Source of the DNA: Atractiella rhizophila
Lineage: Eukaryota
Assembly (NCBI GenBank): GCA_021432655.1
Contig: MU271376.1
Span: 1 to 48,528, forward strand
Direction of reading: 5' to 3'
Length of the DNA stretch: 48,528 nucleotides
In this document: positions 1 to 33,715 of the stretch, in pieces
How the letters are laid out: each line of letters starts with the position of its first letter
Numbering within the stretch: the stretch's first letter is position 1
Program-made: the position numbers and the translations under genes
Notes under the pieces: generated by a model
Databases searched by the model: none
The model's input: the letters and a program-made list of their open reading frames with translations, nothing else
Told to the model about the DNA's origin: nothing

Positions 1-1542
1 GGGGTATGTAGGCTGTATAGGCAGTAGAAGAAGGGGTGGATGTTTTGACTCTGAAGAAAGCACGCAAGAAACGCCCGACGCTTGATCTTTATCGCCACGC
101 GACATCCAACTTTATCGCAACGACGTCTTGTTCCCTCTGTTCACTGGCCCCATTTCTTGGCAAATAAACATATTCGAGAATGAGAATTGAGAATGAGAGA
201 ATGAGAATGAGACAAAACTTGAAACACGAAGTTGTAATATGAGGCCACGACAAGCGTTCCATCATCAGCTCACTGCTTCCTGACAGGTCGACAGCTGCTA
301 GGGTGATTGCGGTGGTACTGTCAAAGTCCTGTACGACACTGAACATGTGGGACAATACCTGGATTAGGATGGATGGATATGGATTGATGGTGTATGCTTC
401 TATTGAAGCCTCCACTTGCACTCTCAGCCGAAGGTTCAGAATCCTGAGCACGAGGTCCCCTATCCCGCTTTGAAATATGAGGCTTTACTTGCCCTGACTT
501 CGAAGCTTGCTCGTGTGGTGTGGCGTGACACTCCCATCGTGACGACCCACTTTGACTTCAGCTTTCGAGCGTTCTTGAGTGGCAAGCGCTCCGATCAATC
601 AGTCCGCGGTCGCGTCAACTCACTGACATGGCATGGCGGCTCGTGAACCGTGAACGTGAACTGTCTTGGTCGATCTCTCAATCATTAATTGTCCCTTGCT
701 CTTGAATGACCCGAGGGTGATGGCCTGATCCACGTACGACTTCGAAACACGTCGTTCTCACGGATTGACGGGCCGTCGCACTTCTTCTTTGGCTGAGATG
801 CTGCGAAATTCATCGTTCAATTCTGTAACGTCTTCTTGCCTTCTTATTCCGATACAATTTCCTGATGCGGGAAATGATAGCCGCGCTGCGCCCAAGGTGC
901 AATCTTCAATGAGAGTGCGAGACCTCCCCTGCTGCCACCATTGCACCACTCGAAAGGCTCACATATGTTAGAGGACCATTGACATCGAATAAGCTGCTTA
1001 TGACTTGTGAGAAAGCTTGCAGTCATTGTGACCGTCTCATTTCTATGTCTGAAGAAAGTTACGAGGCAAAACCACCGACCCTCATCATGTCAACCTCGAC
1101 CTCGATGTCCACTCCGTCAACTTCCCTTGCATAATACGGGATAGGGTCTCCTCCCAATGCCTCCTTGTCCAGTTTGTTCTTCATGTTAATGAAACGAAGT
1201 GCTGCGGCGCTGATCCGGTGATATGTAAGACTCTACTGCAAAAAGTGAACTCCTTTAGCTCAACTAGGGCGAGAACTAAGAGGCTCAATATATAAATGAG
1301 ACCTTAAATGAAAGAGAGACAGGAACAAGCTTATGCTAGCTGCACTAAAGTGTCGAGCCACCTATTGAGCTATTTGGTCTCAGAATGAAGAGAAGGGTTT
1401 TTACAGAGGCACTTCCAAGGCCAGCAGAAGTTACCTTGATTCTTACCGTGCTGTGAGGGTGAAGTAAGATAATGAGGAATAAGGTGATTTTACAGTGACA
1501 AGTGACACTGCTTTTAAAGGCCAATGAACAGATAAAAGATCC

Positions 1543-1874
1543 GGACAAGATTAAGCGAAATGATGGCATGGAGAGGACTGGGGAGAAAGTTTCGTCGTAG
1601 TCGACGCCCTCACGCTGCGTGAAGCCTTGAGCGACGACTCTTGCACGAAATCGGACGGTTTCTCCCCCTGGACCCAGTTTCTCGCTCAACACCCATTTCG
1701 AACCGATCATGGTCTCCCCCTCAGGAAGTGGCATCATCTCTCCAACTTCCCTCTCCTTCCACGAAATCCTCTCCTTGTCAAATGCGTCCTGCCACTTGGA
1801 GGCATCTGCACCATTAACGGCTTCTTCGTACGACGGAGTGAGGTTGCGAGTGGGGCTGGCGATGGTAATGCGAG
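1543..1874 (-). pseudogene. Copia reverse transcriptase N-terminal fragment (RVT_2)
   Basis: PSYEEAVNG...KW...IGSKWVL...RFRARVVAQGFTQREGVDYDETFSPV. It is in frame with the integrase once the 1875-2702 insertion and one TSD are removed (DTVAR|ITIASP). Confidence 0.92.
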
Positions 1875-2702
1875 TGTTAGGGCAAACACTATGTGCGGTC
1901 GCCGATGGGCGATGCGTCTGTAGTGGAGATAAACCTAAGAGAATACTCTAAGGTCACCTCCACTACTCTCTGATCTATATATACAAGCGGAATAACACTG
2001 CCACAAAGTGTAGAGCTGAGCAGATGAAACATGCAAGAGAACAAAAGGGGAAGTGACAGTGGGATTACACGGAGTTAATAAGAGGAGGATAGGCACAATT
2101 GGGCTAAGTGGTGATGTAGGTGCAAATGGACGACAGGAGACTGTCAGGCTTGCCCCACGCATTACCGAAATGCACTATCCGAGGTCACGCGACCTACCTT
2201 ACCGTACCATGTGATCACGTACCTACCCATCACCGCTCTGCACAGATCTGCGCTGTTCGCCGCTTTTCCATTCTTCACACGAATCGCCGCTCAGTAGACC
2301 TTATACATTTCCCCGATCTGCATCGTCTCCATTTTCGCCTTATTGTCCTTTCTCACTAGTACTGCCCAGTATATCTTATTTCTGCGTATTCCCTTTATTA
2401 CTTTCCTGATCTAGCTATCTTACTCGTTTCAAGCAACGTATGTTACAGTTTATGGCAGTGCCTTCACTTATGTATATATACATCGAGATGTAGTGGTGGT
2501 GACCTCAGAGTATTCTCTTAGGTTTACCTCCACTACAGGTTAGTCTTCTCATGCCATACTATTCTCTTAGGTTTACCTCCACTACAGACACATCGCCCAC
2601 CGGCGACCGCACATAGTGTCAGCCCTAACAGAGACGCAGTGGTGAACGGGCAGCGATTCGCAGGGAACGCAAATGGGCGATAGCTAAGATGCAAACCTGA
2701 CA
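1875..2702 (-). mobile_element. Solo LTR inserted in copia pol, itself interrupted by a second LTR
   Basis: Plus strand reads TGTTAGGG...CCTGACA with a 5-bp TSD GCGAG at 1870-1874 and 2703-2707. Homologous to 8899-9393 and 13005-13463. Confidence 0.92.
2142..2630 (+). mobile_element. Nested solo LTR (489 bp) in the opposite orientation
   Basis: TGTCAGG...CCCTAACA with a 5-bp TSD GAGAC at 2137-2141 and 2631-2635. Homologous to 10360-10756. Confidence 0.92.
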
Positions 2703-3968
2703 GCGAGCCACAGTGTCAGAGAGAGGTGTGTCTCCGAAATACTTTTCTCTGTTCTCTCTCTGAGCTTCTGCAGGAGAACGACGAGCTCGCTGAGAGCGTT
2801 CGCGGGGCGGAGGTGGGTCAGGTTTCACCTTCGACGGCGCCTCAGTGGGTCTCTCCCCCTCTTTCTGTTCCTCTCCCTTTTCTACCATGTCTGACATCTC
2901 TTCAGGAGGATCCAGCACTTCGTTAGTTTGGACTTCGAGAGATTGAAGGAGGGTCGGAGGGTGAGTTTCGTCAAATTGGACATGGAGGTGTTTGGTGACT
3001 GACCCGTTTTTAGGGTTGTAGATCCGATAAGTCTTGCTCTCCCAATCATAACCGACCAGTCTCCCTTCCCACGAACGTGCATCCAGCTTCTGCCTGTTTG
3101 GCTCAGGAGGAACCAGGCTGTAAGTTCGACATCCCAGCACGGGCAAGTGCTCCACTGATAGCTTCTTTCCAGTCAAAGCCTCGAACGGCGTCTTGCCTTT
3201 GAGCGCGACGGTTGGACGGTGATTTAGGAGGTGAATTGCGGCGACAGCGAGTTCTCCCCACAGCTTCTTGGGGAGATCGGAAGTGTGGAGGGTAGAACGG
3301 ATGAGGGAAGTGATAGAGAGGTTGAGACGCTCCGTGACGCCATTCTGTTGCGGAGTATAGGAGGCAGTGTGCTTGTGCTTGATGCCATGAGACTTCAGGT
3401 ACGTCTTGAACTCGTTGCTGGTGTACTCCCCGCCATTATCTGACCTTATCGCTTTGATCTTCAGGCCGGTCTCGAGCTCGACTTTGGCTTTGAACTCCTC
3501 AAAGGTGGAGAAGACATCAGATTTTCGCTTTAGAAGGTAAATCCACTTTCTTCGAGTCGCATCATCTGTGAAGCTCACCCAGTATTCAGCTCCACTGATC
3601 GACTTCACAGGCGCAGGACCCCACACGTCAGTGTGGACGAGTTCGAGCTTCTCGCTCGCACGTTTCGAAGGTCCACAAGGGAACGGGAGCTTGGATTGAC
3701 GACCAAGGAGACATCCGGCGCAAGGTGCGTGATGATCCTCCTCTCCCACTTCCATCCCTCTAACCATTTCTTTCTTCTGCAGCTCCTCAAGTCCATCCAT
3801 TCCAAGATGACCGAGCCTGCAGTGCCAGATGTGAGCAGACAGGGTTTTCATGGCAGTGGTGAGTTTTGCATTCGCTTCGCTTGCTTCCAAGAACAGCACT
3901 GACGCATCAAGCTTGCGCAGGCCTCCTTCCGCACTAATTTCTGCCACTACCGTTCCATCTCGCTTCAC
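2703..3968 (-). pseudogene. Copia integrase (GAG-pre-integrase, rve core, SH3-like region)
   Basis: WHCRLGH...CAGC, LVHTDVWGP, FTDD, IRSDNGGEY, PQQNGVTER, LWGE, TPFEAL, LVGYD...YRIYNP. The frame runs into an inserted LTR at 2702. Confidence 0.95.
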
Positions 3969-4485
3969 AATCCTCCCACGTCTGTCCGTGGAGAAGACGA
4001 CGTCGAAACCACATGAGTTGAGCTTATCGGTGGAGAGGAGAGCGCAATCAATTTCGGGTCAAAGAGAACATCGGTGAGTTCGATTTTTCTTTCCACTCCA
4101 TTCAGTTTTGTCAAGACTCTGACTGTTCCAATGCCAGTGGCCTTTGTGATGATTTCGTGGGACGAACGGATGCGACAAGTGTGTGGAGAAAGCAAGGAGA
4201 ACCAGGAACGGAATGGGACGATGTGGTCTGTTGCCGCAGAATCGACGTAGATCCCCTCGCGGTGAGTTCCATCTCCAGCGACCGTGTGGAAAGCCTCTGA
4301 GATCGTTGCTTCCCCAGGTTTTTCTTCTTCCTCCCGCTACTTCTTTCGGCAATCCCTCTCCCAATGACCTTCGATACCACAAAAGTGGCATTTGCCCTTT
4401 TTCTTCTCGCTTTTCGACCTCCCTACACCGCTACTTCCACCTCCCGATTTGGTATAGTTCCTTCCTCCTCCCCCAGACCTTGTAA

Positions 4486-5148
4486 CTAACGCTTCGCTAG
4501 GTTTGAGTCTGGATTCCTTCGATCGGCTTCGAGCAGGAGATGGGAAGCGATGTAGGAGGACGTGAAATCAGAGGAGGAGACGGCGTTGAACGAGGAGACG
4601 AGTTCGATCCAGGACGGGGGTAGGGAGATCAACAGTAGCATCGCGACATCCTCGTCATCCGTCTTGTCACCCATCGCCTTCAACTCTTGCCCCATGGTGC
4701 GAATCCGATTGACATGATCTCGCATCGACTCACCCTCGACGTAACGCGTGGTGTAGAGCTTCTGACAGAGGAGAACACGAGCCTGGCGGTCCTGGGTTTG
4801 GCAGAGCTCCTTGAGCCTATCCCAAACCTCCTTCAGCTTCTCAACATCGATGTCCCGGATATCGGTGAGTACGTGGTCTTTGCAGGCTTCGATAATGATC
4901 GAATAGACTAGGTTCGCCGGTCTCGTCCAGTCCTTCTGCGACGCCTCGACCTTCGGGACTTCCTCCGGCTTCCCAGCCTCTCCCCCAACGGCAATGGGTT
5001 TGACATCCGTCCCAGCAATGATCCCCCAGCATTTCTTGTCGAGCAGCTTCACATGGACACGGAAGTACCAGATGTGGTAGTTCTCCCATCCCTCGAGTTT
5101 TGGGATAGTCGAAGAAGTAAGTACGGTGGTGTCATGATTTTCAGACAT
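4486..5148 (-). pseudogene. Copia gag (Retrotran_gag_2/UBN2-like), frameshifted before the zinc knuckle
   Basis: IPKLEGWENYHIW...VWDRLKELC...EGESMRDHVNRI...VAMLLLISLPPSW motifs are typical of copia gag. Confidence 0.9.
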
Positions 5149-5192
5149 TTGAGGCTGACGAGGTGGCAGGGAATTCAGCTAGATGAGAACGA

Positions 5193-5205
5193 GCTCTCGC
5201 TACCA
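5193..5205 (-). promoter_or_regulatory. Primer-binding site (TGGTAGCGAGAGC)
   Basis: A TGG-initial motif complementary to a tRNA CCA end lies directly after the LTR terminus and upstream of the gag ATG (5148). TGGTAGCG resembles the initiator-Met PBS of Ty1. Confidence 0.75.
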
Positions 5206-5207
5206 AA

Positions 5208-5467
5208 TGATAAAGATTATGAGCGGTGGGACAAGCGGGACTGCAAGGTGCGAGACCAATCAAAACTCTCTTATTGTATGTTCTATATGAGAATGAAATA
5301 CATACCTGCAAGGTGCAAGACCAATCAAAACTCTGGGTCTCACACTTGCAGGGGAAGTTATTTTATAGCATAAAAGCTGAGTAATAAGAAAAAGGAACAA
5401 AGATGAAAGAAAGACTTCGCACCAGCAAGAGAAAGGAGGGTGCGTTTATGCTCCTGTCAAGATATCA
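5208..5467 (-). repeat. 5' LTR of the copia element
   Basis: Minus strand runs TGATATC...TTTATCA (TGATA/TATCA inverted termini) and ends 2 nt before the PBS. It has an internal CTGCAAGGTGC(G/A)AGACCAATCAAAACTCT direct repeat and a hairpin. The outer boundary is uncertain by ~10 nt. Confidence 0.7.
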
Positions 5468-6448
5468 TGCAGTTATCTTTCCCTCTTCGTCCTGTCGATC
5501 ATGTGTGCTTGGAGCTGATCGGAGAGGCATAGAGAGATGAGCGGGACCCTGATAGGGTATTCTGTGGTCAATGGGACCTTCAGGTTAGCAGCCGATTCCA
5601 GTACAGGAGCGTGTCGCCACATTTAAACCTTGTGTATCCGAAATCCATGGGCTCGAGAACAATGTGGCCGCCTCTCAACAACCAAGAGATATCCTCTTTA
5701 AGCTTTGCTGCCCTCACGCTCACATACATTCTACCTCAGGTTCTCATTCTCTGACATCGGACCCCACAACGAAGACATGTTCCCACCATGGTTCACGCTC
5801 TCTCTTCTTTTCCCTGCCTCTGCGTAGATTTTGCCAACTGGATCATAAGCCCAAGGAGGGGTGCGGCTTCCTCTTCGGCGATCATATTCACTCCAATAAA
5901 GTCCTAAAAATACCGCGGATGTTTCGCACTCGAATGGCCGGTAATCCTTTGAGCTAAAGGAGTCAGCTCCCCAGTTTCAAGCGAATGCGAGGTGTTGGAC
6001 CGGATGGGGGTCGAGAGGATTGTCGCTGGAAATATGTTGCAGGCATGTCGGAAGTATGGCATGGAAAGGTGGGAATTGGACAATCATCTCTTTTGCGATG
6101 CCATGGTGAGATGAATAGCGTAGAATTGACGAACCAAATTGTTTTGCAAATGCATAAGTACACAAGAACGTAGTATTATTCGTCCTGGATTTCAGCTGGG
6201 AGCAGCACCCCAGTGACATCCACCTAAGCTTCAAGTTCACTGTAAGCACATCAACCAATTTGTTGTAACGAGAGAAATGAAGGATCGACTCTTATAGCTC
6301 AGGACAAAAGCCAGCAATGAATCCATGACTGGACAGATAAGGTTGAGTCGAGTCTTTGCCTGCTTGAGATAAAGGATTTCGATCGTCGCGTTGTTTTTTT
6401 CTGGGAAGTGAAAAGAAAGCGCGGCTGAGACGTGAATGATACAGGTTC

Positions 6449-6669
6449 ATGATGGAGGAAGTAGTCGAGTTCCTGTCCTCTGACAATCCAAATGTCCGTC
6501 TGGAAGCAGTCAAGATCGCCAAATCCTACTCGACCCTACCATCCTCTCCTCTGCATTCTCCGACGTCAATCAATGCACTCAAAGCCCTCGTACAAGACAG
6601 CAATCCAGTACGTATCCATCACTCGCCTAACCTTACCGCTGACCACATCCAGCTTATAGCCCATGACGC
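6449..6669 (+). CDS. HGH1: HGH1-like protein (eEF2 chaperone), N-terminal part, cut by assembly gap
   Basis: MEEVVEFLSSDNPNVRLEAV...ALKALVQD, then a GTACGT..CAG intron (~6608-6652), then LIAHDA. This resembles the fungal Hgh1 N-terminus from memory. Confidence 0.6.
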
Positions 6670-6694
6670 NNNNNNNNNNNNNNNNNNNNNNNNN
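6670..6694. other. Assembly gap (25 N)
   Basis: Run of 25 Ns. Confidence 1.
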
Positions 6695-8732
6695 GGGGAT
6701 AAAAGACTTAGACTTGCCATGACTTTTATAGGTTTCTGTAGCAGTTAGTGACAGCGAGAGAATTACTGGTACCTTTCGGAGACCCTCTAAATGCTCGAAC
6801 TCGCGCGTTACCACGTAACACCAAACGCAGCTTCATAATTTACGCGTAACACGATCACATACCGCCTTTCATAAGTACACCTTCCTTCTGGTTTCTCGGT
6901 ACTGGTATCAAAAGTGTCCCTTCACAATCCCGACTGTGATACACGGTCTCAGCGACAACTTCTACGAGACCGCGGAAGAGATCGGGTTGATCTCCAAATA
7001 AGTAGCCTCTTCTGTAGTTCCCGTAATTTCTGGGAAACGATATCTCACATGTTGTGATTGAGAACATCCCAACTGCAGTTGACGGAACTCATGCCGTTCT
7101 TGCTATTTATCGATCTTTTCCGTTACGTTATTTCACCTTATTATTCAACGTTCTTTGTTACCCGTTGTAACGATCACTCTTTCCGATTCTCTATTACTTC
7201 TCTACCCTATATGAGTTTTAGATATTCTATATTTCGCTGACACGTACACTTGTTCTTACTCTTTTCCCTTTGACTTTTTTCCAGGCCTTTTACGTGTGCT
7301 TGGTCTTCTCCTCTTTAGCTATTCCAGCTTTCTTGCTGTTAAGGTACACTTCTTACGTTTTTCGCCCTGGTTTGTCGGGTCTGGATACTTTTCTATGCCG
7401 TTCTATGTCTGGCCTTCCGCTTTTATTTACTTGTATGTACTGTCGAGCCGTTCCGACCCGAGTTTTCACTTGGTGTCTAGCAGCCTGACATGAAGGCATT
7501 ACTGCACTTCGTCTGGTTGTCTTTTTACTTGTTTCCTTCGATTGTGTGGCTACACTTGGAGGACCGTGTTTCATGACAACTTCTACGATTCTGTCCGTAC
7601 AGAGATCGGGTTGATCACCACCATTAAGTAGCCTCTTCCGTAGTTCCCGTAATTTCTGGGAAACGATATCTCACATGTTGTAATTGAGAACATCCCAACA
7701 GCAGTTGACGGAACTCATGCCGTTCTTGCTGTTTAACGGTTTTTTCCACTACGATACTCCCACCCTAAAACACAACCTTCAGTAGTTACCGTAGAAACCA
7801 CACTATAACCGACTATATTACTTCCTACCTAGAAAAGTATTGGATTTCATTTCGCAGACACGTAAACTGGTTCTTACATTATCACTTTGACTCTTTATCA
7901 GACCTTTTAGGGAGTTGGACTCCTCCTCTATAGTTATTCCACTTTCGTACTGTTAAGATACACTCTCTAAGTTTTACTACTGGTTTGTGGGGAGGGATAA
8001 TTTACTACACCGTTATATGACTGGACTTCCGCTATTACTTACTTGTATATACTATCGAAACGAACAGACACGAGTTTTCACTAGGTGTCTAGCAGACTGA
8101 CAAGAAGGAATGACTGAACTTCGTCTGGTTGTCTTTTGTACTCGTTACCTTCGATCGGGAGGAGACACTTAGAGGACAGTGTTTAACGACAACCTACGTT
8201 CTGTCAGTACAGAGAAAACCAGACAAACCATCAAGTTTACTTCAGTGTCACTAAACTAAAGTGAATACAAACTCTTTCACCCTTCTCCACCCTTCTTCGT
8301 TATGAGATGAACACGACCAATTTCCTACTCGCATTCCGTGTTGTTACCTTTGATCTCTCTCGATTCTCCCCTGTACAAGAAGGCTTTAAAGTTTTCCACT
8401 ACTACAATATTTACGTTCACCATTGGTAACTTCAAACCCTCTCCTACTGCTCATTCTCTCGTCGCTCCACACTCTGACGTTCCACACTCTGGTTTGGTTA
8501 TTCTTACACCAAGATCGATACATTGCCGGTTTATGTCGTGGACACTCCACACTCTGGTTTGGTTATTCGTACACCAGAACGTGAGTGTCCCGTTAAGCGA
8601 AAATAGTCTCTTTTCACGACTTATTACTCTTCCACATTAACCTTCACTTCTCCTTTGAACTCGTGTGTGTGTTATTCCTACGATTCTCTGCACTTACAAG
8701 AGTCTTTCATCCTCCACATTCACAGGATATTG
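6695..8732. other. Mirror-orientation (complemented but not reversed) segment, probable assembly artefact
   Basis: 6924-6945 is the exact reverse, not reverse complement, of 2609-2630 (22/22). The plain complement of 8474-8494 matches 5239-5259 at 20/21. The right boundary is approximate. Confidence 0.88.
6954..8215. repeat. Imperfect ~620-bp tandem duplication within the mirror segment
   Basis: Units start GACAAC(TT)CTACG at 6954, 7575 and partially at 8188. They share long blocks such as GTAGTTCCCGTAATTTCTGGGAAACGATATCTCACATGTTGT and differ by many indels. Confidence 0.9.
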
Positions 8733-8898
8733 CCCAGATCACATATTTTGGCCTATTTGGAACTGTGGGAATGATCTATATTTGTGTTCACATCAGCGAA
8801 ATTGAATTCCGACTCCATGACTTGAAACCTTCATTGGCCCAAAAGGCCTACGACAATTCCAATTATGATGCATTTTCTGTTTCATTTTCAAGTAGTAA

Positions 8899-9393
8899 TG
8901 TTAGGGCAAACACTATGTGTGGTCGCCGACGGGCGATGCGTCTGTAGTGGAGATAAACCTAAGAGCATGATATGACATGAAGACTAACGTGTAGTGGAGA
9001 TAAACCTAACAGAATACTCTAAGGTCACCTTCACTACTCTCCAATCTATATATACAAGTGGAATAACACTGCCACAGAGTGTAGAGGAGAGCAGATGAAA
9101 CATGTAAGAGAACTAAAAGGGGAAGTGACAGTGGGATTACACGGAGTTAATAAGAGGAGGATAGGCACAGTTGGGCTAAGTGGTGATGTAGGTGCAAATG
9201 GGTGACGGGAGACGCAGTGGCGAACGGGCGCCGATTCGCAGGGAACGCAAATGGGCGATAGGAGACGCAATCCAGCGAACGGGCGCCAATTTGCGTAAGA
9301 TGCAAACCTGACAGATAGGCACAATTGGGCTAAGTGGTGATGTAGGTGCAAATGGGCGACGGGCGCCGATTTGCGTAAGATGTAAACCTGACA
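8899..9393 (-). mobile_element. LTR copy of the same family with internal duplications
   Basis: TGTTAGGGCAAACACTATGTG...AAACCTGACA, near-identical to 1875-2141 plus 2636-2702. The terminus is duplicated (ends at 9313 and 9393). No matching TSD. Confidence 0.9.
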
Positions 9394-10359
9394 TCACTTC
9401 AGCAAAGCCTGGTCTCTTGCAGCACATCTGCTTCACTCCTGCAACATCCTGCTTGCTCCTGCTCAGCCCGTTCATCTGGTTCGCTTCTGTAACATGCTGC
9501 TCCTGTAGCAAAGTGTTGCGTACTCCTGCAAAGTCCTGCTTGCTTCAACAAAGTCAGTCTGCTTCATGCACCTCTGCTTTGCTCCTGCAATGCCAAGCTC
9601 ACTGAAGCTACATGCTGGTTCCTCCAGTGAAGCAGTGGTTGCCTCAGCAAAGGCTGAAGGGGTGGCTGGCCCAGCAGAGGGACTCTGTAGCAAAGCAGTG
9701 GTCAAGGGCTGATACCTACAGTGAAGCAGCGGGGCTGATGTCTCCAACAAAGAGCAGTCTCTCTGATGAAGGTGCCTCCAGTGAAGCTATAGTTCCTTCC
9801 AGCGAGGGGGCTGTCCGTCCAGGGAAGGTTCTCCTCAGCGAAGCAGTGGTTATGGCCTGGATCCTTCAAAGATGTATAGGCCAATGCAGTGAAGGAGTTC
9901 ACTTCCAGCATGTCTGCGCCTCACTTTGGAGGTATGGACCGCATGCAGGAACTCATCTTTGCTCTGGGGACTTGGTCTCGTTCCAGTTCCGGTATGGGAG
10001 ATGCATGTTTGGGACCAGGTTCGATCTGGGAGGCCAAGGTCATGTCACTCTATGTTGAAGCCCATCAGGTTCTAAGTCATCTCTACATACCCTAAGGGGT
10101 CATGAGGTGCAGACCCAAAGCGGTTACTATCAGTTTGTGTGAAGCAGACTTCGTGAGAGAGGGCGAACTTGGTATGTTGCAGTTAGTTCCTATACAAAAG
10201 TGGTGATTTTGTGAAATGGGTGAACTTTGTATGTTGGAGTGCCAGAGTAGTTATTTTGTAACAGGAAGTGCATTCACTTCCCAAAAGCATGTGAGGCAAA
10301 AGTCACAACAACAGGTGGACTTTGCAGTTTGTAGCCAGCCAGCCACCCGGAGTACCCAC

Positions 10360-10756
10360 TGTCAGGCCTGCTCCTACATATTACCAAATTTCATCAATCT
10401 AGGTCATGCAACCTAATTTCCTACTTCACATTTTCGCACTCTTACCAACCACCGCTTTACGTTGTTGCATACAGGTCACCGCTCAGCACTTCGCCGGTCT
10501 GCACTGACACCATTTCGTCTTGACATTCTTTCACATTGCTCTACTTATTTTATCTTATTTCCAGTTATTCCCTTTGTTGCTTTTCCGATTTACTTATTTG
10601 ACATGTTTCATGGGCCATACTTTATAGTTCATGGTGGTGCCCTCACACATGTATATAAATCGAGATGTCGTGGTGATGACCTCAGAGTATTCTTTAGGTT
10701 TATCTCCACTACAGATATTGCCGATCGGCGAACTTTATATAATGTCTGCCCTAATA
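10360..10756 (+). mobile_element. Diverged LTR copy, possibly the 5' LTR of the gypsy relic
   Basis: TGTCAGGCCTGC...GTCTGCCCTAATA, colinear with 2142-2630. The terminal CA has become TA. Confidence 0.8.
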
Positions 10757-11618
10757 GAAGAATACTCTCCCTCCACCCTCTCTCTCTTCTTCAAAACCAA
10801 AGTTAGAAAAATGTTGGAGGTTTGGGGAGACATGAAAATGCACAATTCACTACCAACAGAAAAACGTATCTATCGCTCAGAAAGGATGTTCCAACTCTAT
10901 ACCTCACAACTGAAAAGCAGTTCAGAAAACTTGAACAAGACCTCATGTCAAGTTTCAACCAGTAAAATGCACATACTTCCCAGAATGTAATCGAAATTGT
11001 GCAACTGAGATCCGACCTCCAAAATACAAACGACTTTACGATTGCTAGATTCCAGACTAACTCTTCCTAGAGACAGTGGAACCACCTCCACCTTTTTATC
11101 TCGAACAGACCCAACACCTCAAGCATACTCCTCTCCTTCTATATATCGATCTGCAGTTTCACTATATGCAGGTACTAAACTTGTTTCACAATCTTCAAAG
11201 GAGTGCCCAACACAGCTCCAACCTTTTTACACGAAATTTACGGCTACACTTCTACTGTCCCAGGATAATTCCCCTCAGAAACATTAAAAATTCTAATTAC
11301 CCTCTCTTATATGAAAGATGGAGATGCTGAAAAATCCGCCGCTAGGATTTTGTGCTGACTTGTTGAAAATGAGGACTAAATTCGTGCAGCAATTTTTGTC
11401 AGAGTTCAGATCACGATTCTGCGCATCCAACCACTAACCCATCAGTGATGGCTGGACCCCAAAACATGTTTTCTATGAAGAAAAACAGCTTGAAAATAAC
11501 AAAACACAAGGAGAACAGACCACCTGTATTGTATCGACTGAGTACTAATCCCTCACTGAGCCCCCGAGGACATGGAGGTCGATGTGACACAATCTAGACC
11601 CCTCGTTGTCGACGATGC

Positions 11619-11712
11619 CAAAGAATAGGACACAGGGAAAGGAATGTAGGACGTCCATGAACAAAGAATAGGACACTGGGAAAGCGAATATAGGACATCC
11701 ATGAACAAAGAA
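11619..11712 (+). repeat. ~43-bp tandem repeat (2.2 copies)
   Basis: CAAAGAATAGGACAC(A/T)GGGAAAG..TAGGAC(G/A)TCCATGAA units start at 11619, 11662 and 11706. Confidence 0.9.
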
Positions 11713-12039
11713 CAGCACCTCTGAGCACAGTGTGAATATTTCAGTTCCAAGTTTGCGCAACAAGACTGTCAAGCGACCCAGATCATTGAACTTCTGACGA
11801 TAATGGTTGTTCCCCAATTGATAAGTCTAGATGAGGATTTTTAAAGCGGCGATGGGTGGAAGAAGTGTCCCCATTGCCGACCTGCAATTCTATTTCATCA
11901 CCTAAAACCACTTCCAACAAAGCACCACTTTGACTTTGTGCAGATTTCCCTCCTCCCGAATTCGACTCCCCCTTTCCAAAGATGAAAAAATACACCTTTG
12001 TTCCACCACTACATCTCTCGTCAGCTTGAAAACGAAACT

Positions 12040-12675
12040 CAGAACTACATTCCATCATCCATATTCCCAATTGCCGACAAGCCACATCGGTGCTTGTTGA
12101 CAGTGGGGCAACCATTTCCTTCATTTCCCCAAAACTCGTTTCTGCATACAACCTACCCATCACTCAACTTCCTTCCCCAGTAGCCAATTACAATATCGAT
12201 GGATCTCTCAATCAGGGGGGTTCCATCCATTCTGTTGCTTATTTACCCATTTTGATCGCTGCTCATCACAAAGTTTGGCAATTCGCAGTGGCGGAGTTGG
12301 GGACGGTTGACATGATCCTAGGTCATGATGGGCTGAGACACCACAACCCAGAGATTAACTGGGCTTTAGGAAAAGTAGAGTTCTCTCACTGCCCCACCCT
12401 TACAATGCGGTTGATGTGTCTACCCCATGCGAACAACTTCCATCGTCGTCTGCCTCAATACAAGCCACCATTACAAAATCGTAGAAACTGGCACAATACG
12501 TGGCGGCGATGAGACGAAAAAGTGGTCGAAATACCGGTGCAAATTGGAATTTTGCAGACATCTTTGATGACGAAAAATTCAAAACGTTACTTCCTCCACG
12601 ATGACTGTGGGACCATGCCATTAACCTTAAAACAGATGCTTGTTCTCTCAACAATGTTAAAGCCTGCAAAGGTGA
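12040..12675 (+). pseudogene. Ty3/gypsy pol relic: aspartic protease and pre-RT region
   Basis: LVDSGATISFI, YNIDGSLN, MILGHDGLRHHNPEINW, then frameshifted FADIFDDE...LLPPR*LWDHAINLK. Protease directly before RT is the gypsy order. Confidence 0.88.
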
Positions 12676-13004
12676 CAGATTGGCAACGGACACACATCCC
12701 ATTGACCAGTTATACTGCACGTTGTGTCTACAAGTGTGTGGCCTGAGCCTATTTAGTGGTGAGCTCCAAAATAAGCTTGGGTAGCTAGTGGGAGGAACAC
12801 CTGAGTGCCTTCCCCTAGACAGAGGAGTGAGTCCTATATCAACCATTACAGCTAAGGCCCCTACTCACTACCATTCCTTATGCCACTGTGACACAATTTA
12901 CACTCGTCACCGCCTGGCATTTTGCCGCTAATACTGAGACCCAAACTGCATACATTTCAGAGTTCAAAATCACCAATCCGGGCAGACTACTCGCTATTAC
13001 TACT

Positions 13005-13463
13005 TGTCAGGTTTGCATCTTACACAAGTCGGCGCCCATTCACCGGATTGCGTCTCCTATCACCCATTTGCGTTGCCCGCAAATTGGCGCCCGTCGCCAC
13101 TCAGCCTCTCCCGTTGCCTGTTTGTACACAGTGCAAATTGGCACTCAGTCGCCTGTTCGCCCATTTGTGCCTATATCACCACTTAGCCCAATTGTATCTA
13201 TTCTCCTCTTATTAACCGCGCATAATCCCACTGTCACTTTCCTATTTTAGTTCTCTTACATGTTTCATCTGCTCTCCTCTACACTCTGTGGCAGTGTTAT
13301 TCCACTTGTATATAGATCGGAGAGTAGTGGAGGTGACCTTAGTGTATTCTCTTAGGTTTACCTCCACTACAGGTTAGCCTTCAGGTCATATCATGCTCTT
13401 AGGTTTATCTTCATTACAGACGCATCGCCCGTCAGCAGACCACACATAGTGTCTGCCCTAACA
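13005..13463 (+). mobile_element. LTR copy (459 bp)
   Basis: TGTCAGGTTTGCATCTTA...GTCTGCCCTAACA is a reverse-complement match to 8899-9393. Confidence 0.9.
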
Positions 13464-13560: not shown

Positions 13561-15405
13561 CTATTCCTTGATGAACCCCAGACGCCAGTCAAGATAACCC
13601 CAAAATTTGCTGTCTATATCTGGTGCATATCGGTAGTCATCTCCATCTCCACCCTCACAAACCCAGGAACCTAAGCAAAGGTCGAACTCGCTTCCTTCAC
13701 ACTCTCTTAACATGCTCATCGCCCTGCTCATCTCTCCATCCAGCCATGCTCCAAAAAATAGGAGAACCCTTAAGTGCTTACCTGGGTCCCTAACCCCTCT
13801 GTTCCCAAAGAACCAGCAAATGAAATCTAAGAATATAAACCCTTCAAATTCAAACCAGTACACCATACAGTACCGAACATTTATTGAGGAGATTGCATTT
13901 GCATTTCTGAGGGTATAGAAGAACCTTTGGGGAACAATGTTGGAAGTTTCCTCACCACCATCGAGGTCAAGGGACTTGAGATGTTTGAGGTATGATAAAT
14001 CCAGCGGGGTGGTTAGAATGGATGTCTTCCCATCAGGCGAGTAGGACTTGAGCCAGATTGCAAGTTCTTGTAGGAGTGGTGGCAGACACGAGCCTGAGAT
14101 GGAGGCAGGGAGGGGACACAGATTGGCAAGGTGCAGCCGTGTTAGGGTTGGTGCAAGGGAGAGGGATGGGATAGGCGGATACCGATGAAGACATAGATGT
14201 TTCAGTTCAGAAGGTAATTCAAGGCCTGTTGATGTTGAAGAGCCAGAGTCTTCCACATTGTGAGCACGCAACTTTCTGATCCTGCCTCCTATCCTCCGCA
14301 TAAAATTCTCGATCTCATCATTCTTCCAACTCCTCCAACCTTGATCGCTAAAACCCACATCATCTAACCTTGTCAACCCTTCAATAGCATGTAACACAGT
14401 CTTTGCCTCCTCTTCAGTCCAAAATGCACCTATAAGAACTTCTTCAACATTAGGCGTGCCTGCAATGATGTCTTTTGCCATCTCAACTCGATTCCTATCG
14501 TCAAGCTTCGTACCAGACATAAACGAGAGGGTTCTCCAGAAACGTCCAGCACGGGGATCCAGTTTCAAACGAGCATACAGCTCCTGCACTGGAACATCTT
14601 GACGCCAATAAGGGATCGAAGCAGTCTCCCAGAGCTGACAGACATCAGAGACTCGCTGGAAGCAAAGGTCATATTGATCATCTTCAAGATCTTCAATGTA
14701 TTTTCCAAAAGAAAGGAATATGAAGACGAGAGAGAGTATCTCGGTAGGCAGCTGTGCAATAGTGCATGGATTAATCCCTGGAGTTCGAGTTGGGGACATG
14801 GAGAGTTGGATGATGTAGCCCTCACTGGTGGATGGGATGGCTGATGATTCCCATGCACTGACAGGAACGAAATTCCCACTAGAGAGGAGTGCAACGAGGT
14901 CAAAAATGACCTGAGAGCGATCATCTGGAAGATGGATCATGGATGTGAAGCGCCTCACGTGCACCTTGTCTGAATCCACAAATGTATGATGTTTCCTGTC
15001 CACAAAAGTTACTGTAATACTTTTCTCCTCCAATGTGATGCAAAAGTTCACTACACCATCAGAATCGACTGCACTTTCAAGACATTCAAGTGAGAAGTTT
15101 GACGATTTCGACGGCCCATATTCCCATGACAGAAACTCAACAGGGAAGACAAAGGTGATCCGGAGCATGCGAATCAATGGAGGTAGCCGAGCAACGAAAG
15201 AGGGAAGAATGGAGAGATGCATCGGAGTGTGTTCATCAAGGTGATTTATTGTGTACCAGGGAGCGATGAGATGAGCCAGTGCGGTTGACTCTGTTCCCTG
15301 ACCATCCTTGCATGGAATTGACGTTTCCATTTCAATCAAACCTAACGCTCGTTCTATTTGGCTTTGAGGTTGAACCCTAACATTCATGCAATTTAAAATT
15401 GGCAA
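13561..15405 (-). CDS. F-box / leucine-rich (RNI-like) protein with long N-terminal extension; probable extra upstream exon(s) at ~15430-15898
   Basis: 614-codon ORF. IAQLPTEILSLVFIFL...VSDVCQLW F-box-like motif near 14760, followed by LKHLCL, LTRLHL, LQELAI and LKSLDL repeats. Confidence 0.75.
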   Translation of the reverse strand: MPILNCMNVRVQPQSQIERALGLIEMETSIPCKDGQGTESTALAHLIAPWYTINHLDEHTPMHLSILPSFVARLPPLIRMLRITFVFPVEFLSWEYGPSKSSNFSLECLESAVDSDGVVNFCITLEEKSITVTFVDRKHHTFVDSDKVHVRRFTSMIHLPDDRSQVIFDLVALLSSGNFVPVSAWESSAIPSTSEGYIIQLSMSPTRTPGINPCTIAQLPTEILSLVFIFLSFGKYIEDLEDDQYDLCFQRVSDVCQLWETASIPYWRQDVPVQELYARLKLDPRAGRFWRTLSFMSGTKLDDRNRVEMAKDIIAGTPNVEEVLIGAFWTEEEAKTVLHAIEGLTRLDDVGFSDQGWRSWKNDEIENFMRRIGGRIRKLRAHNVEDSGSSTSTGLELPSELKHLCLHRYPPIPSLSLAPTLTRLHLANLCPLPASISGSCLPPLLQELAIWLKSYSPDGKTSILTTPLDLSYLKHLKSLDLDGGEETSNIVPQRFFYTLRNANAISSINVRYCMVYWFEFEGFIFLDFICWFFGNRGVRDPGKHLRVLLFFGAWLDGEMSRAMSMLRECEGSEFDLCLGSWVCEGGDGDDYRYAPDIDSKFWGYLDWRLGFIKE

Positions 15406-17838
15406 ATGTTAATCAGCAAGAATACACACTTATTATTTTCCATGCCAGCCAGCGAATGGTTCCTGTTGGATAACAACTGACTTGAATAGGGTGGAAGAGT
15501 GTAAGGGTGTTGGAGGATCTTGTTGCCTCCCGTTCCCAACAACGCATCATGTTGCGGAGACTCGTGTCCGAGGGGGGTAACGATGAATGTATCGTCATCA
15601 GAAACTGGATGGGGTCCACTGCTATGAAAGATAGCGCCAAAAAGGTTTTGACCACCGTGTCCGACAGCAGGAGCATGACCTAGACCTTCTGCACAACGTG
15701 ATCCTCCTTTCTGCACTTCGAGTTGTCGTGTAAGGTCCTCGATGCGTGCTTCATATCTGCTCTCTTTGTCAGCCTCACTCTTCACATACATATGGGGACT
15801 TTCTTGCTGACCATCCGCTGATGCTCATTCTTTATATCCACCAAAGCTTGTCGAATGGCATAGAGCTCTTGAATCTGCTTGAAGGCTGTTATAGGCATCG
15901 TTAGCAAACAGAACAAATGCAATTTATTCTTGTGACAAAGGTGTCATCTTTGTTCTTCGATCAATCGATTGTCAAAGACGAAAGAATCAAGGTTACGTAT
16001 TTGCTACTGCTTGCGATATCTGACAATCATCACATCCCTTCGATGTGAGGAGGAAACAAAGGGGTTGTGATCCTCGACTCGAAAATTACGAGGTCAAACA
16101 GTTCTGTGAGTCTTTCGGGATATCCCACAAATTATTCGGGCACGGGATGACTGTTCCATGTCCGCAGTCCCACATCATTTCCTCATTCGCTCACCGTTCT
16201 CATTCAACTCCTCTCTCTCATGTCTCATGGCCAATAATTCACTCTCCAAAACCTCCGAGTCAAAAGCCACCATATCTATGACTGCGTTCAGAGGTGTCGG
16301 TTTTCCGGACAGTCGTGAGGTGTACATCATGAGAAGGAAGGGCAGTCGTTTTAATCGCTTTGGATAAGGGATAATTCCTTCAAAGCAATCAATTATAAAG
16401 GTTGCGGGTGGTCGGAGGGCTGCTCCCATGATGTGATTGATCACATGGGGAAGGTTTGCGTCTGCTTGCTTGAAAAGGTTACGACTGGTTGAACAGTTTT
16501 TAACCGAACATCGCCGAATTGCAAGTGGCGAAGAAGAAGTGGATTTGAGAGGTGGAAACCACTTGCGCAAATCTAGGGCTTTTATGGCAAAGAAAGTATT
16601 ATGGAATCTCGTAGCATAGTCAGAACTTCTAACGCAATATTTTCTTTTGATTACCCGATTCTCCTCGCTCCTAGCCCAAGTCGCGGTAACCTTATTCGTA
16701 ACGTAAGTACACAACTAGATATCGCATTGCAACATTTGGCGGGGGACGACATCGTCGCTTCCTGTTGTGGAGAGGCAAGATAGATAGAGATCTTGCCTGT
16801 AGGAGACAGAGACTCCATAGATTCCCACATTGAAGCGGAACGCGGATATTTTCTTTCTGCTAACATACTACAACATACCAAAGTCACAATTCCAATTTCC
16901 CAAGGAAGACAAGAGGGTGCGACTGGAATGAGGAAGTCCAGTCCATATTAAGAGTGAATTTGTCATGGCGTACTGTCTCCGGGATATGACAGCTGACAAG
17001 GGAAGAAAGAGGGGATGAGTCCCTCATTCTTCTTGCAGTCTTTTGTCCTCGTTTGACGATGTAGGATTAACCCTAAAGGAAAGGAAGGGCAACAAGACTC
17101 CAACTTCCAAAAAGAATCATTGTCCAGGCATATCTCAATGCATCCATTCTGACTGCTACTCTGGCGAAGCATACCGAGAACGTTGGCCAATGCTGATGCG
17201 CTCTCGGACAATGTGTAGTAAACTTTTAATGCCCTGGGTCCAAACATGATGAAGCTATATGCAACGAGATCAAATTAAGTAGAGCTATCATGGGGGGGAC
17301 TTTTCAAAGCAAAGCAAAGGTTTTAAGGAAAGCGGTATCATACAAAAAGTTTGCAAACAGAGACAAATTGCAAAAACAAATGCGCGATGAATAGGAATAG
17401 CAATAAAGTGTTCAGTCAGTAGTGTCAATTTCAAACCGGACAAACCAAGTCATGGGAGGTAACTGTTGCTGCAGTATCACGTAACAAACAGCAGTCTTTT
17501 GGAAAGTTGATTGTGGTGGCAGAAGAACGGAAGGAAGGAGACTGGTGAGCGGGCTAGGTGCTATAGCCCATATGAATATAATACAGGACTATGAGTTGGA
17601 GGTTGTGAAGATGATGGATGGACTGGTACAGAATGAAATTAATAAACAAGGAGTGCTCTCAACCAAACCGATCCTTGGTGCTGCTCAGTTCTGATGCTGA
17701 CGGCATTGATCGATCTATTGTGCCTTTTGAACAGGGTAACCTGCGCAGGCATTTTGGGTCATCTCGTTCCTCTCGTTAGCGCTTGTAACATCCTGGGCAA
17801 CACGACAGCATAACCTTAGTCTGTTTCTCCCTGCTTCT

Positions 17839-19349
17839 TCAATGAGGAGCGACGTACTCGGTATCATCTGGTCCTCTCATCTCCACACTCATCCTCCTCA
17901 CTCTCTGGTAACTCCCCAACCCGCTCGTTCCACTCATCCCGGTAATACTAGGGAGCCTCGGCCTCCCCATCCCCATCCCAGTCGAGGGCCTTTGTATCCC
18001 GATGCCCAAGCCTCCCATTTCCCGATCAACGTCCATCATATCGTCCAGTTGATAGTGAGAGTGATTGTATTCGCTGCTCGTTCTCGACGAGGGAGAGGGG
18101 TTGGAGGAGCGTCCCTGGGAAGAGCCGGAGGAGGAGTTGGAGGAAGCGGACCGGAGGGGTTGGGATTGGTAAGGTTGCGGAGAGGGTGCCCTCATGCCGA
18201 ACATTCCTCTGGCTTGCTGCTGAGGCTGCTGCTGCTGCAGCTGAGGTCCGGGACTTGGTGCTCTTCTACCGAAGAGGCCTCCTGATGATTGAGGAGGAGC
18301 CGGTGGTCGTGTGGTTTGAGGCGGGGGAGTCGAGGCTCTCATTCCACCGAAGAGTCCGCGAGAGGGTTGAGTTTGGGGTTGTGTAGGAGGACGTGTCTGT
18401 ATGGGAGGAAGCCGAGTGTTTGCGGTGTTCGTCGAAGCAGAGGGTAGACCGCTCCTTGCGAATAAGGTCGGACGAGGTTGCTGTTGGGCTTGGGATTGGG
18501 AGTAAGAAGGGAAGGGAGCAGGTTGAGCTTGCGTTGGAGGACCAAACCGCTTGGTTGTAGGTTGAGGTGGGGGCTTGGCTGCACGTACAGACCCTGGGTT
18601 CGGCGGACTCTTACTGATACTGGTGGAACTCCCGCCGAACAGTCCGCCTGTCCCGCTTCGGTTCCTCGACGAGTTGTTGGCGTACATTTTAAATGGCACG
18701 GTGACCGATCTAAGGATTAGATCATTACTAACTCGTGGAAGTGTACGATACTCCCGATTGTAATATGCGACGAGGTGCCAGCGCTCGACTGTCGAGTTCG
18801 ATACCTGTCTGTTGATACAGATGGAGGCTCTGGTAAGAGGAAGCGCGCCGATTGGGTAGCCGCCTTCAGTATAAGTGAGAAAGACGCCGGACATTCTGGA
18901 CTGCTTGTACTGATGTTGTTGATCGATTAAGGAATAATGACAACCAGTTAGTTCTTAATATACCTGTCGATTGATACAGATGGAGGCTCTGGTGAGAGGA
19001 AGCACGCCCGTTGGATAGTCGCGTTCGGTATAAGTGAGAAAGACGCCGGACATCCTGGACTGCCCGCACTGATGTTATCGATCGATCAAGGAATAATAAC
19101 AACTGGTTAGTTCATTTTCTCTGACGCAGTTCGAGAAGGAATTTGCACCTTCAGGTGATCAGTCCATCGCATCATCCCGCTTTTACCTTCCTCAAACACA
19201 AAGACGGCGCCATGCTGGATTAGCTCTTCCCTCTCCTGCTCGTCTAACTTAGGCATGTCAACGAGCTTCCCAACAACACACGCGTGTACGATCTTCTCCA
19301 CGTCGGTGATGTCAGCTACGTATCCATGCCATGTAGCGTGCAACGACAT
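17839..19349 (-). CDS. Gti1/Pac2 (WOPR) family transcription factor, copy A
   Basis: TWHGYV...DVEKIVHAC...ELIQHGAVFVFEEGKSGMMRWTD...SRMSGVFLTY...WHLVAYY and a P/Q/S-rich tail. Exons 19349-19149, 19068-18964 and 18909-17839 all join in phase 0. Confidence 0.88.
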
Positions 19350-22300
19350 ATTACTTCGAGAGGTTGGGAGCGTTAGTACTTCCTGAGAGGTAGGTGATTC
19401 GTGTTAATAGTTATAGGTCCATCATCGAGGGCATCAAGCGACATGCTCTTTTTATTGTTGGACGGGATAAACGAGATTGGAGAGGGTCGAAGCCAATTGA
19501 GAAGAGATTTGCCACAATGCAAGATGAAGATGAAGACGCACAGCTAGAGCCGCTTTCCCCCTGACGTTCAGGGTAATGCATGATCTTGTCACACTCCTGT
19601 TAATTGAGTTTTGGCGTCGTTGATCCCTTATTTGAGCCAACGATTCGTATTTCGTCAATTGCAGGAGATTTTTGGTTATCCTGTTCCTGTTACACTTCAA
19701 CTTTCAACCTTCCTGCAATATGGTAGACCTGCGGTTAAATTACAGACGAATTGCTTCGGATGGTGCTGATTAGTAACAAACGAAGTTTACGTCCCAAAAA
19801 TCTCACCCGACGTTTCCATGCAAGATCCTGTTTACATTCCCGAACTTTGATAAACGCAGGGCCTACCGGAAGTGTCCTGGCGTAACGTTTTCATTATGCC
19901 AAATTTACTTAGCTGGTAAAGAGATGAAACAGTTCGGCCTTCCAGTTTCGGCAATCTGATCTTTATGTGCTTGTTTCACCCCTTGGTCGCTTCCGCCTTC
20001 GACTTTCCAGTTCCAGACATGGGCAACAGACAATGTCTCTTCACGGCCGCAGAAGGTTTTCTGAAGGTTTTGTTTCGGAGCGTCGTGCACATGATCCATC
20101 TGTGCGCAACAGGCGCCGTTTGTGTCCGTTTAGGACGCCTCCTTGACAGGGTTGAAGCTTTCAAGCTTGTTACAGTTCGGCGCATTTGGATCTGGCCTTG
20201 TATGTCAGCCTTGGAGAGTGGATAATTGGGGCTAACCCTTGCTAACGCTAGCCTTTCAACAAGCCATTGCTCCGCGTCGCTATTCTTAGACCGAGAGAGG
20301 AATGAAAGTCAGCGCGATGTCTGACTATAATGGGATCGGGATCCACGTTCAGGCCAATGACGCGTGAAATCCACGCCAGAGCTGCCAATGAAACAACATG
20401 GCGGACAATTTAGATAATGATTGCAATGCAGAAGCGTGACTGTGTCACTGGGAGGGTGAGCAAGTGCTAGTAGCACTACAACGCTACGAGTTGAGAGAAC
20501 AAGCTGGGAGGAACAAGGTCCAAGTCAGGTGAAGAATGTAATGTGAGCAATTCGACAGCTCGCTCGTGTGCCCAACCTGTTTGAGAAGCGGCGCAGACCT
20601 AAGCATTCAACTTGAAATGTCCGGAGGTGGCACCACCTCTTCGCTCTTCCTTTCACCCTTCCCAAACAAGATGACGAACGATAATTCGTGCACACGCGAA
20701 AGAGAGCCGGACGGTGTGACCTGATGGGCAAACAGGTGAATCGGCGCCGTAGGCTGTGTGAGTTCAATCCTGAGCAGGCTCTGGAGCAATCTCAAGGAAG
20801 GATGGTACTCACCTGCTGCGAGAAGATTGCTTGAACTGTGGAGTACCGGCTTCGGATCGAGGTTTTCTTGCGCCGACGAGAATGGTGCATCATGCAATTC
20901 TTGCGGTGGCTGCTTCCAGGCTAATGCAAACAGTTCCACTGGAATCAGAATGCGAACTTGCAATTTGGAAGCGAAGACGCGAAAATGTAAAATGTCGTTG
21001 CTTTCCTTCCTCTTGGGTGGAACTCTTCCAGAAGGACCTCACTACAGGCTCCTGCGCCACCTATCTCAGCCTCCTTGAAGTCCTCAGAACTCTGTCAAAG
21101 TATATTCAGGAAAGAAATAGATGGGGATTATGAGAACTCTTCAAATTAAAAATGAGGTTATCATTGCAACTGCAGAGACTCCTGAATACCGTAAAGTAGA
21201 TTCACGTCCTCCAAACGTTGGGACCATGCAGATCCACTTCGATTTCACTTTCACGAGTGGGAGAGAGAACGAACAAGCAAACAAGAATGGAACGAGAGCA
21301 GCGATATTCTAGGGAGGCCTGGGCTGGTAACAAAGTACGGTTATTTTGGTGTATTAGTGAGCTCCCCCTGAAACATTCCAAGCAACTACATATTCGAAGA
21401 AACTAATGTATTTCAGCAGCCCAGTCCCGCTTTTCATCCTACCTTTTTTATGCAGAATCAGTGCAGAACGCCCAGTTTCATTTTCGAGATTTCAACTTTA
21501 ATTTTTCGCCCTCGAAGGCTTGGCAGATGCCCTTGCACCTCCAAATTCGATCTCTGCCCCTTGTTGATGCAGTTCAAGACATGCTGAAGTGCTGGAACGC
21601 CACAAGAAACTACGCCCGAAGTATTTCTGTCGTGACAACCGAGCAGGAAGGTCCTGCTGCTGTTTCCATTCAACCGGCCCAAAGTTTTGCCGTTGGCTTC
21701 TTCGGTGTCCCTGAGTTCCCTGAGTTCTTGGAGCAGGTTGCTCTCCTTCGATTCGACCTGAATTGTGTGCCTGATTTCCAACTCCTTACGCTTGATTTCG
21801 CTATCCGGTGTCGACTCCGATCGAACGTCTATTAACAAGTTTGAAACTGAATTACTTGCAGAGAGGCATGTTACGAGGGTACAGGGACGGAGGTGGTGGT
21901 GGTTCTACTTGAAACAGGAAACAGAAAGGAGAAAACGGCACAACGGTAGGAAGGCCGGTTCAAACTCTAATTCAAACCAGAAGTTTAGAGTTTGTACAAT
22001 CTTCTGCCGCACCGATCTTGTATTTACTTTTAATTTGCCCACTCCTTTGACGAAATGGATCAAAATATGCTGATCAGGTTGCTGTTCGATGAGGACGGAA
22101 TTTGAGAAATACAGTTAGGGCACTCTCCTCTACTCGGAGCCATGCTGGTGAGGAAATTCACTTCCTCATCTCGCATTGTTGTCGATTGTTTCCTCACTTG
22201 CTGTCCACCTTTTGTTGTCTCGTTCATCCATCAATAAATATGAAGAGCCTTTCGCTTGGACGCCGAGGATAAAACAACATAATCCATATCTATTTCTTTT

Positions 22301-23144
22301 AGGCTTTCGGGTCTAGGCAAGCATGAGTCATCCATAGTGCGCATAGCGCCATAGGAGACGCATATGAAACGATCTATGGGGGTCCTATGATAGGCCAGGG
22401 AACTTGCTGATATAGTCCATCGCATTCAGGATCAAGCGAACCTTCAAAGTTTTCCTTTCCTCTCTTTCATGATGCATTTTCCACCAATGGAGTAACTTTG
22501 GCAACAGTCAAACTAGAATTTTCCTTATTCCAACACGCGTCATAGTCGAAGCTCTCATTCCAAACACCTCCTTCTCTCTCAATACTGCGAAGTTTCTCAC
22601 TCCAATGGCTGCACACAGGCCGAAAGATCAAGATGGCTGGGCCTATGGTCTGTCGCCATCACTTTCTCCTTCCTCGCTTCTCAACCGATAATTATCACAG
22701 AGCCCTTGGTCCTAACGAGAAGTTGACTGACCGCGTCCCGCTTTTCTCGATCATGTTCAGGACAATCTTGATTTGGACCAGTTATGCGGTTGAACGTTGT
22801 TTGGGAGGGGATCTACAGATGATAAAGGTCCGATTGACGGAAGAGTCGGATCTCTTTCAAGGTTGTCTGGCATTTGTTCCTCACGTCTGGAAACACAGCG
22901 CGTTGAAATTACACACTCTAATTAAGTTGAGAAGACGCCCGAATAAAGGGAGTGTCAAACAAAGATAAGAGCGTCAATCTTGCATTGATGCTGATGAGTA
23001 TTCGAGCATTTTTTTTTGCTCCTTCCATCTCCTCACATAAAGATGTCACCCAGCACCATCCCCTCATACACGCACAAAACCTGGCCTGGCAACATAAACA
23101 AACCACAAACTAACCAACACAGGCTCCCAACCTCTCGAAGTAAT

Positions 23145-33400: not shown

Positions 33401-33715
33401 ATGGCGCCGCTCAGACAGTTGTATCTAAAGCCACTTTTCCATATCTTCTTGTCAGCTGGCAGCTAAACTCAAAAATGGGCGAAAATAACCCGCTTACTAG
33501 ATGATAGCCTTGCCTGCTCGAAAAGGCGTAAAACGAGACAGAAAGAGAGAGAACACTGTCATTCGAATGAAGAACTGTGACCGCTAAATGATGTAACTCC
33601 TGTTTTACTTGCTCCTCGTGCAGGGGGACGAAGCTTGGTTAAGAAGCTTTGAAACTTGGTGGGCATTTTTCTTTTTTGCTACAGCTTCCCACAAACATAT
33701 CTGGTAATGCTTTTC

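Follow-up and report, generated by a model that had tools for sequence, protein, structure and literature searches.

How can some 2 kb of a fungal assembly resemble the DNA around it only when every letter is complemented and the order of the letters is left unchanged? The locus lies in contig MU271376.1 of Atractiella rhizophila (assembly GCA_021432655.1), of which we analyzed positions 1 to 48,528, referred to here as the window. A first-pass annotation, made from the letters alone, had described the segment 6695-8732 as matching its neighbors solely as complement-without-reversal. We compared this segment with the rest of the window in all spellings, that is as written, as the reverse complement, as the complement and reversed, and the description was borne out by alignments, by BLAST and by composition. 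We conclude that 6695-8724 is very probably (with a probability of about 0.95) an artefact at the level of the text, due to the mishandling of a strand during assembly or gap filling, and not DNA as it occurs in the organism.

The surrounding window

The rest of the window reads the correct way round. It contains a copia gag, an integrase, a piece of RVT_2, and the start of a gene that is identical to a database protein. The features are collected in Table 1.

Table 1. Positions of the mirrored block, its genuine counterparts and neighboring features in the window.
Feature	Position	Strand	Comment
Piece of RVT_2	1345-1947	-	profile match
Genuine repeat copy	2141-2630	-	counterpart of mirrored 6924-7521
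Integrase	2625-4058	-	profile match
Copia-type gag	4486-5178	-	PF14223, E 1.4e-26
Genuine block upstream of copia gag	5239-5390	+	counterpart of mirrored 8474-8631
DUF383/HEAT-type gene start	6449-6669	+	residues 1-59 of 358, one intron; runs into gap
Run of 25 N	6670-6694		only N run in the window; left edge of mirrored block
Mirrored block	6695-8724	.	2,030 bases, complement-without-reversal; on the other strand, reversal-without-complement
Mirrored terminus of TGTTAGGGC-type repeat	6924-6945	.	exact backwards spelling of 2609-2630
Mirrored diverged repeat copy	6924-7521	.	resembles 2630-2141, minus strand
Collinear match of complement	6924-6945 to 2630-2609	minus	E 4.6e-5
Collinear match of complement	7100-7184 to 2428-2347	minus	E 5.6e-4
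Collinear match of complement	7287-7388 to 2336-2241	minus	E 8.8e-8
Two direct-repeat units in block	6999-8137		period 612-626; families D10, D11
Mirrored relative of copia gag upstream block	8474-8631	.	with internal repeat
Stretch right of block, supported as written	8725-8919	+	public-run contig

The first-pass annotation labelled the end at 2609-2630 an LTR terminus, which we treat as putative. Ends of this TGTTAGGGC type form two inverted pairs in the window, 1875/2630 and 8899/13463, and no clear target duplication was found at them. The first pair bounds a unit of 756 bases, the inverted ends of which (1875-1945 and 2560-2630) are 93% alike. This unit, which has the appearance of an insertion or of two repeat ends joined head to head, separates the integrase of a minus-strand copia element from its reverse-transcriptase part. 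The second pair bounds a larger unit, with inverted arms at approximately 8899-9320 and 13000-13463 that are 84-97% alike, enclosing a fragment of a retroviral-type aspartyl protease (12030-12512; PF08284, E 1.3e-8). The contigs of this repeat have a summed depth of ~100,000-250,000 in one public sequencing run (X1, see below), compared with ~250-330 for unique DNA, and the repeat at 8899-13463 therefore represents a very abundant family.

Further to the right, the minus strand has a 615-codon open frame at 13561-15408, for which no Pfam match was found at E <= 0.01. The arms of an inverted repeat lie at 17725-19371 and 23123-24595, 88-95% alike and separated by ~4 kb. Tandem duplications are found at 27410-29448 (~1.03 kb) and at 32612-35354 (~1.4-1.47 kb), with copies that are 91-100% alike.

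Homology of the block in mirrored form

The first-pass annotation had noticed that 6924-6945 spells the repeat terminus at 2609-2630 backwards. The two agree at 22 of 22 positions, with E 4.6e-5 when the segment is searched against the window by BLAST, and E 0.001 when the complement of the whole window is searched against the window. This short match lies at the end of a much longer one. When the complement of 6924-7521 is aligned locally, with gaps, to the minus strand of 2630-2141, 372 of 483 aligned columns are identical (77%) and the score is 520. The three other spellings score 138-174, and 100 shuffles gave 136 ± 15.6 with a maximum of 182, so that the alignment stands ~25 shuffle standard deviations over the mean.

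The annotation had proposed a BLAST search with the complement, and held that a lack of further genomic matches would weaken the mirror call. Run against the window, the search did return further matches, including those within the 77% copy of 2630-2141 that corresponds to 6924-7521. With short seeds, three matches of the complement are collinear along the minus strand of this one repeat (Table 1). Seventeen matches of the complement were found at E <= 10 with short seeds, and 5239-5259 was also matched. The written text with short seeds gave seven matches to the window, the best with E = 1.0, and neither the written text nor its reverse complement gave any BLAST match to the window at E <= 1e-3.

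A second region of homology lies close to the right-hand end of the block. The complement of 8474-8631 is collinear with 5239-5390, with a Smith-Waterman score of 62, and the alignment takes in the GACTGCAAGGTG-type repeat in both its copies as well as the hairpin arm and the A/T-rich block. The same segment scores 15 as written, 20 as the reverse complement and 27 reversed, while 200 shuffles gave 19.5 ± 2.5 with a maximum of 32; the score is thus ~17 shuffle standard deviations over the mean. The claim that the plain complement of ~8450-8730 reproduces the organization of 5220-5460 thus held, with 8474-8631 and 5239-5390 as the parts that align. With gag on the minus strand, 5239-5390 lies directly upstream of it, as for a copia LTR. 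No second copy of 5180-5900 in normal orientation was found within the window, and the element may run off the start of the window.

The mirrored matches are confined to the block. Searching the complement of the whole window against the window gave four matches, which are two reciprocal pairs, each with one partner inside the block, and no mirror match outside it. The idea that the block simply mirrors the flank beside it was rejected; the reversed block gives the 22-base match alone when compared with the window.

Within the block there are direct repeats, with copies at 6999-7130 and 7625-7756 (92%), and at 7383-7525 and 7995-8137 (84%). Direct repeats stay direct under mirroring.

Composition and orientation

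The orientation of the text can also be read from its composition. Reversal swaps CA with AC, TG with GT, TA with AT and CG with GC, and we calculated strand-symmetrised odds ratios for these dinucleotides. For AC/GT the odds ratio is 1.28 in the block and 0.88 in the rest of the window, and for CA/TG the values are 0.94 and 1.12. The ratio for TA is 0.89 in the block against 0.62 outside, with AT at 0.65 against 0.95. Finally, CG has a ratio of 0.99 in the block compared with 0.81 in the rest of the window, and GC 0.50 compared with 0.93. All three reversal-sensitive pairs are therefore exchanged between the block and the text outside it, in agreement with the impression, originally gained by eye, of a segment rich in AC, GT and TA between flanks that favor CA and TG.

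We extended this to longer words with an orientation score, defined as the log-odds of a short word against its backwards spelling and trained on the rest of the window. Each of the six 500-base windows in the block has a negative score, lower than that of any window outside it, at word lengths from 2 to 5. The lowest 500-base score outside the block is -5.3 (word length 2), at 18251-18750, a stretch that has no mirror matches. Summed along the sequence, the score climbs up to the gap (~6700), falls across the block and climbs again from ~8680-8730.

For controls we used leave-out training on windows of the length of the block itself (n = 43). With a word length of 2 the block has an orientation log-likelihood of -43.4 (z = -6.9), while all 43 controls are positive, with a mean of 37.5, a standard deviation of 11.7 and a minimum of 9.4. 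At word length 3 the block scores -84.3, and the control minimum is 17.4. On reversal the block scores +43.4 at word length 2, which is within the normal range.

It might be argued that the mirror matches arose by chance and that the block is ordinary, if odd-looking, intergenic DNA, given that the first matches were picked by eye; nothing further speaks for such a reading. The 22-base match at E 4.6e-5, the alignments ~25 and ~17 shuffle standard deviations out, the z of -6.9 against 43 controls and the zero mirror matches elsewhere in the window all stand against it, and we regard its probability as negligible.

The edges of the block

The first base of the mirrored block is the base directly after the run of 25 Ns, so its left edge lies at an assembly joint. 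The right edge has been placed at ~8732 in the first-pass annotation. We correct this to 8724, eight bases further inside, on the agreement between a contig from public sequencing runs and the turning point of the orientation score at ~8680-8730. There are no Ns at the 8724/8725 joint; the 25 Ns are on the far, left-hand side of the block.

Three public runs, which we refer to by code, contain part of 6695-10694, with shares of sampled words of 0.30, 0.25 and 0.06, none of which reaches half. X1 and X2 come from one sample, perhaps the source of the assembly itself, and are not independent of each other. A contig of 396 letters (record 1 of X1 and record 9 of X2) matches 8725-8919 with 0 differences, while the 201 letters that remain extend leftward of 8725 and have no fit to the window at 90% likeness. 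That they lie to the left was read from record 8 of X1, where the last letter of a minus-strand record is at the lower window coordinate. Since the contig agrees with the written text from 8725 and then continues leftwards with other letters, it sets the right edge of the block at 8724/8725. Its depth is 334.7 in X1 and 224 in X2, compared with 124-324 for other unique pieces, and thus corresponds to single-copy DNA. The identity of strain between the runs and the window is assumed from the 0 differences over 195 bases. We conclude that the real DNA continues leftwards from 8725 with letters other than those of the written text.

In the depth profile, all 15 bins across 6695-8704 have zero depth in all three runs, although an absence of cover is by itself no evidence, and all 15 bins from 8705 onwards have depth in X1 and X2. 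A search of metagenome contigs with the 35 bases at 8725-8759 gave 0 matches.

These observations bear on the most exotic reading of the locus, that the DNA exists as it is written and arose by a systematic exchange of A with T and C with G, i.e. complement-only copying in a parallel-strand manner that would give 'swinger' DNA. At the level of repeat families the block does formally obey the exchange rule. Against this, the block begins directly after the N gap, and at its other edge, 8724/8725, a contig found in two runs with the depth of single-copy DNA parts from what is written. To our knowledge no polymerase copies in parallel orientation, and this too counts against such an origin. Moreover, the cases cited for this kind of DNA are themselves database records, and hence open to the same artefact. 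We therefore consider the swinger reading very improbable. The same low standing applies to its fuller form, in which a kilobase-scale nuclear stretch would have been made by parallel complement-only copying of repeats, with the departure of the contig put down to a difference between strains.

The content of the block and the interrupted gene

Read with the mirroring undone, the block begins with 229 bases without an assigned family, followed by the repeat copy of 6924-7521 from its terminus inwards. After this first TGTTAGGGC-ended copy comes a second unit, and then the relative of the copia gag upstream block at 8474-8631.

The longest open frame from stop to stop in the block is 129 codons over all four spellings. 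Six-frame peptides of at least 25 residues, numbering 57 for the text as written and 59 for its mirrored form, gave noise alone against the window, with best E values of 0.006 and 0.015 respectively. Judged by frame lengths and the comparison with the window, the predicted hidden content is non-coding repeat DNA. The earlier claim that the block hides real sequence from six-frame analysis thus stands in so far as neither strand nor any frame of the written text gives a match. As regards coding content the claim found no support, with no frame longer than 129 codons and, in either spelling, no match to a protein-coding part of the window.

On the other side of the gap is the start of a gene of the DUF383/HEAT type. 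Over the first 53 residues it agrees at 100% with a protein of 358 residues in the database, named in its source as a DUF383-domain protein of Atractiella rhizophila. Residues 1-59 alone match in the window, and the remaining ~299 residues of the protein (P0001) were found nowhere in it, either as written or complemented. It follows that the true gap is longer than its 25 Ns, or else that the join is wrong. The gene is interrupted by the gap and not by the mirroring. In the database the full protein is encoded on a single contig, 73,294 bases long. The two sides of the N gap may therefore have been misjoined, or the gene start may be a redundant partial copy.

Origin of the mirrored text

The first-pass annotation had proposed that a strand was mishandled during gap filling beside the 25-N gap. 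Four results support the core of this proposal, an error of the text and not real DNA: an edge of the block that coincides with the N run, a reversed oligonucleotide signature over the full length of the block, homology that is seen solely with the complement, and a contig that departs from the written text. In the mechanism that we propose, a correct repeat-rich stretch would have been written into the scaffold by software that carried out half of a reverse complement, either reversing without complementing, or complementing without reversing.

The layout, with Ns on the left and a seamless join on the right, points to gap filling as the step at which this would have happened. The block would be an extension that was built into the gap, starting from the right-hand flank, and inserted in mirrored form. 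We infer this from the seamless 8724/8725 joint together with the Ns on the far side, as would be found for a gap that has been reduced. If the extension was made from the right flank, then the true sequence is probably the plain complement in its given order, running on into 8725; an alternative is the reversed text in place.

That alternative belongs to another account of the same artefact. A contig of 2 kb, or a contig end, could have been misturned at some other step, by an assembler, a scaffolder or a submission script, in which case the truth would be the reversed text in place. Both one-step errors leave an identical signature. The homology might have separated them, yet it fails to span the joint: when the complement of 8400-8724 joined to 8725-8900 was compared with 5150-5800, the 120-base span scored 17, against 17.9 ± 2.3 for shuffles. 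Because the homology to 5150-5800 does not extend over 8724/8725, it does not separate a collinear complement from text reversed in place. The left-hand gene has no continuation within 42 kb, so that the scaffold join itself may be wrong, and this too would fit an error made at another step. Conversely, a contig placed on its own would usually be flanked by Ns at either end; 8724/8725 has none, and there the public-run contig runs leftwards unbroken. An error at another step is a serious possibility, though at clearly less than even odds, and we favor gap filling from the right-hand flank. We found no link of the assembly to any particular program, and a literature search gave no assembly report for the species.

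Significance of the block

If the block existed as written it would be kilobase-scale nuclear DNA made by parallel copying, and would be highly interesting. As an error in a file, the mirrored block is without biological import. It does mean that 2 kb of a public fungal assembly are unseen by normal searches, whichever strand or reading frame is used, and mirrored text of this kind could pass for exotic biology, as similar records did. The log-odds of words against backwards words provide a cheap detector, which split the block from 43 of 43 controls and placed its edges to within ~50 bases. It could be applied to every gap edge of an assembly, and its value lies in the quality control of databases.

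Comparison with known systems

Natural mirror repeats, which can form H-DNA, have short adjacent arms of homopurine and homopyrimidine. The block shares with them a backwards symmetry on the same strand. It differs in that the mirrored parts are ~600 and ~160 bases of complex sequence, diverged from their partners (the ~600-base partner is 77% identical), which are 1.9 to 5 kb away. On these grounds of complexity, distance and divergence, a natural mirror repeat or H-DNA tract was rejected.

Swinger DNA offers a closer formal likeness. According to PMC4942731, on this concept of Seligmann, no rule other than the exchange of A with T together with C with G has been reported for DNA records, and the mitochondrial 16S gene of the stonefly Kamimuria wangi is cited as an example. 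As in our locus, a regular record switches sharply to text that equals real sequence after complementing. The authors of that work infer polymerization, whereas here the edge at the N gap and the departure of the contig indicate an error at the level of the file. Swinger DNA would be present in molecules and not in a record alone; at this locus the contig of single-copy depth departs from the written text at 8725.

A placeholder of 25 Ns is written for gaps that are unsized or overfilled. One widely used gap filler, PBJelly, defines gaps as at least 25 Ns and extends flanks into them, and Ns remain when a gap is merely reduced (as described in passages of PMC3504050). Flank extension of the PBJelly type resembles what we observe, in the 25-N gap, the seamless splice to one flank and the Ns on the far side. 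The corresponding passages of PMC3504050 mention no complement-only fault, and in this the block is unlike it. Among titles and the openings of abstracts in the literature, we found no report of reverse-only or complement-only errors in assemblies.

Lastly, the block may be compared with errors of orientation at scaffold joints. Like these it is a product of software, sited at an assembly joint beside a run of Ns in repeat-rich DNA. In an ordinary misorientation, however, the text has undergone the full reverse complement; it is still valid DNA and still matches its relatives. The mirrored block has undergone half of that operation, and so matches nothing in six frames or on either strand.
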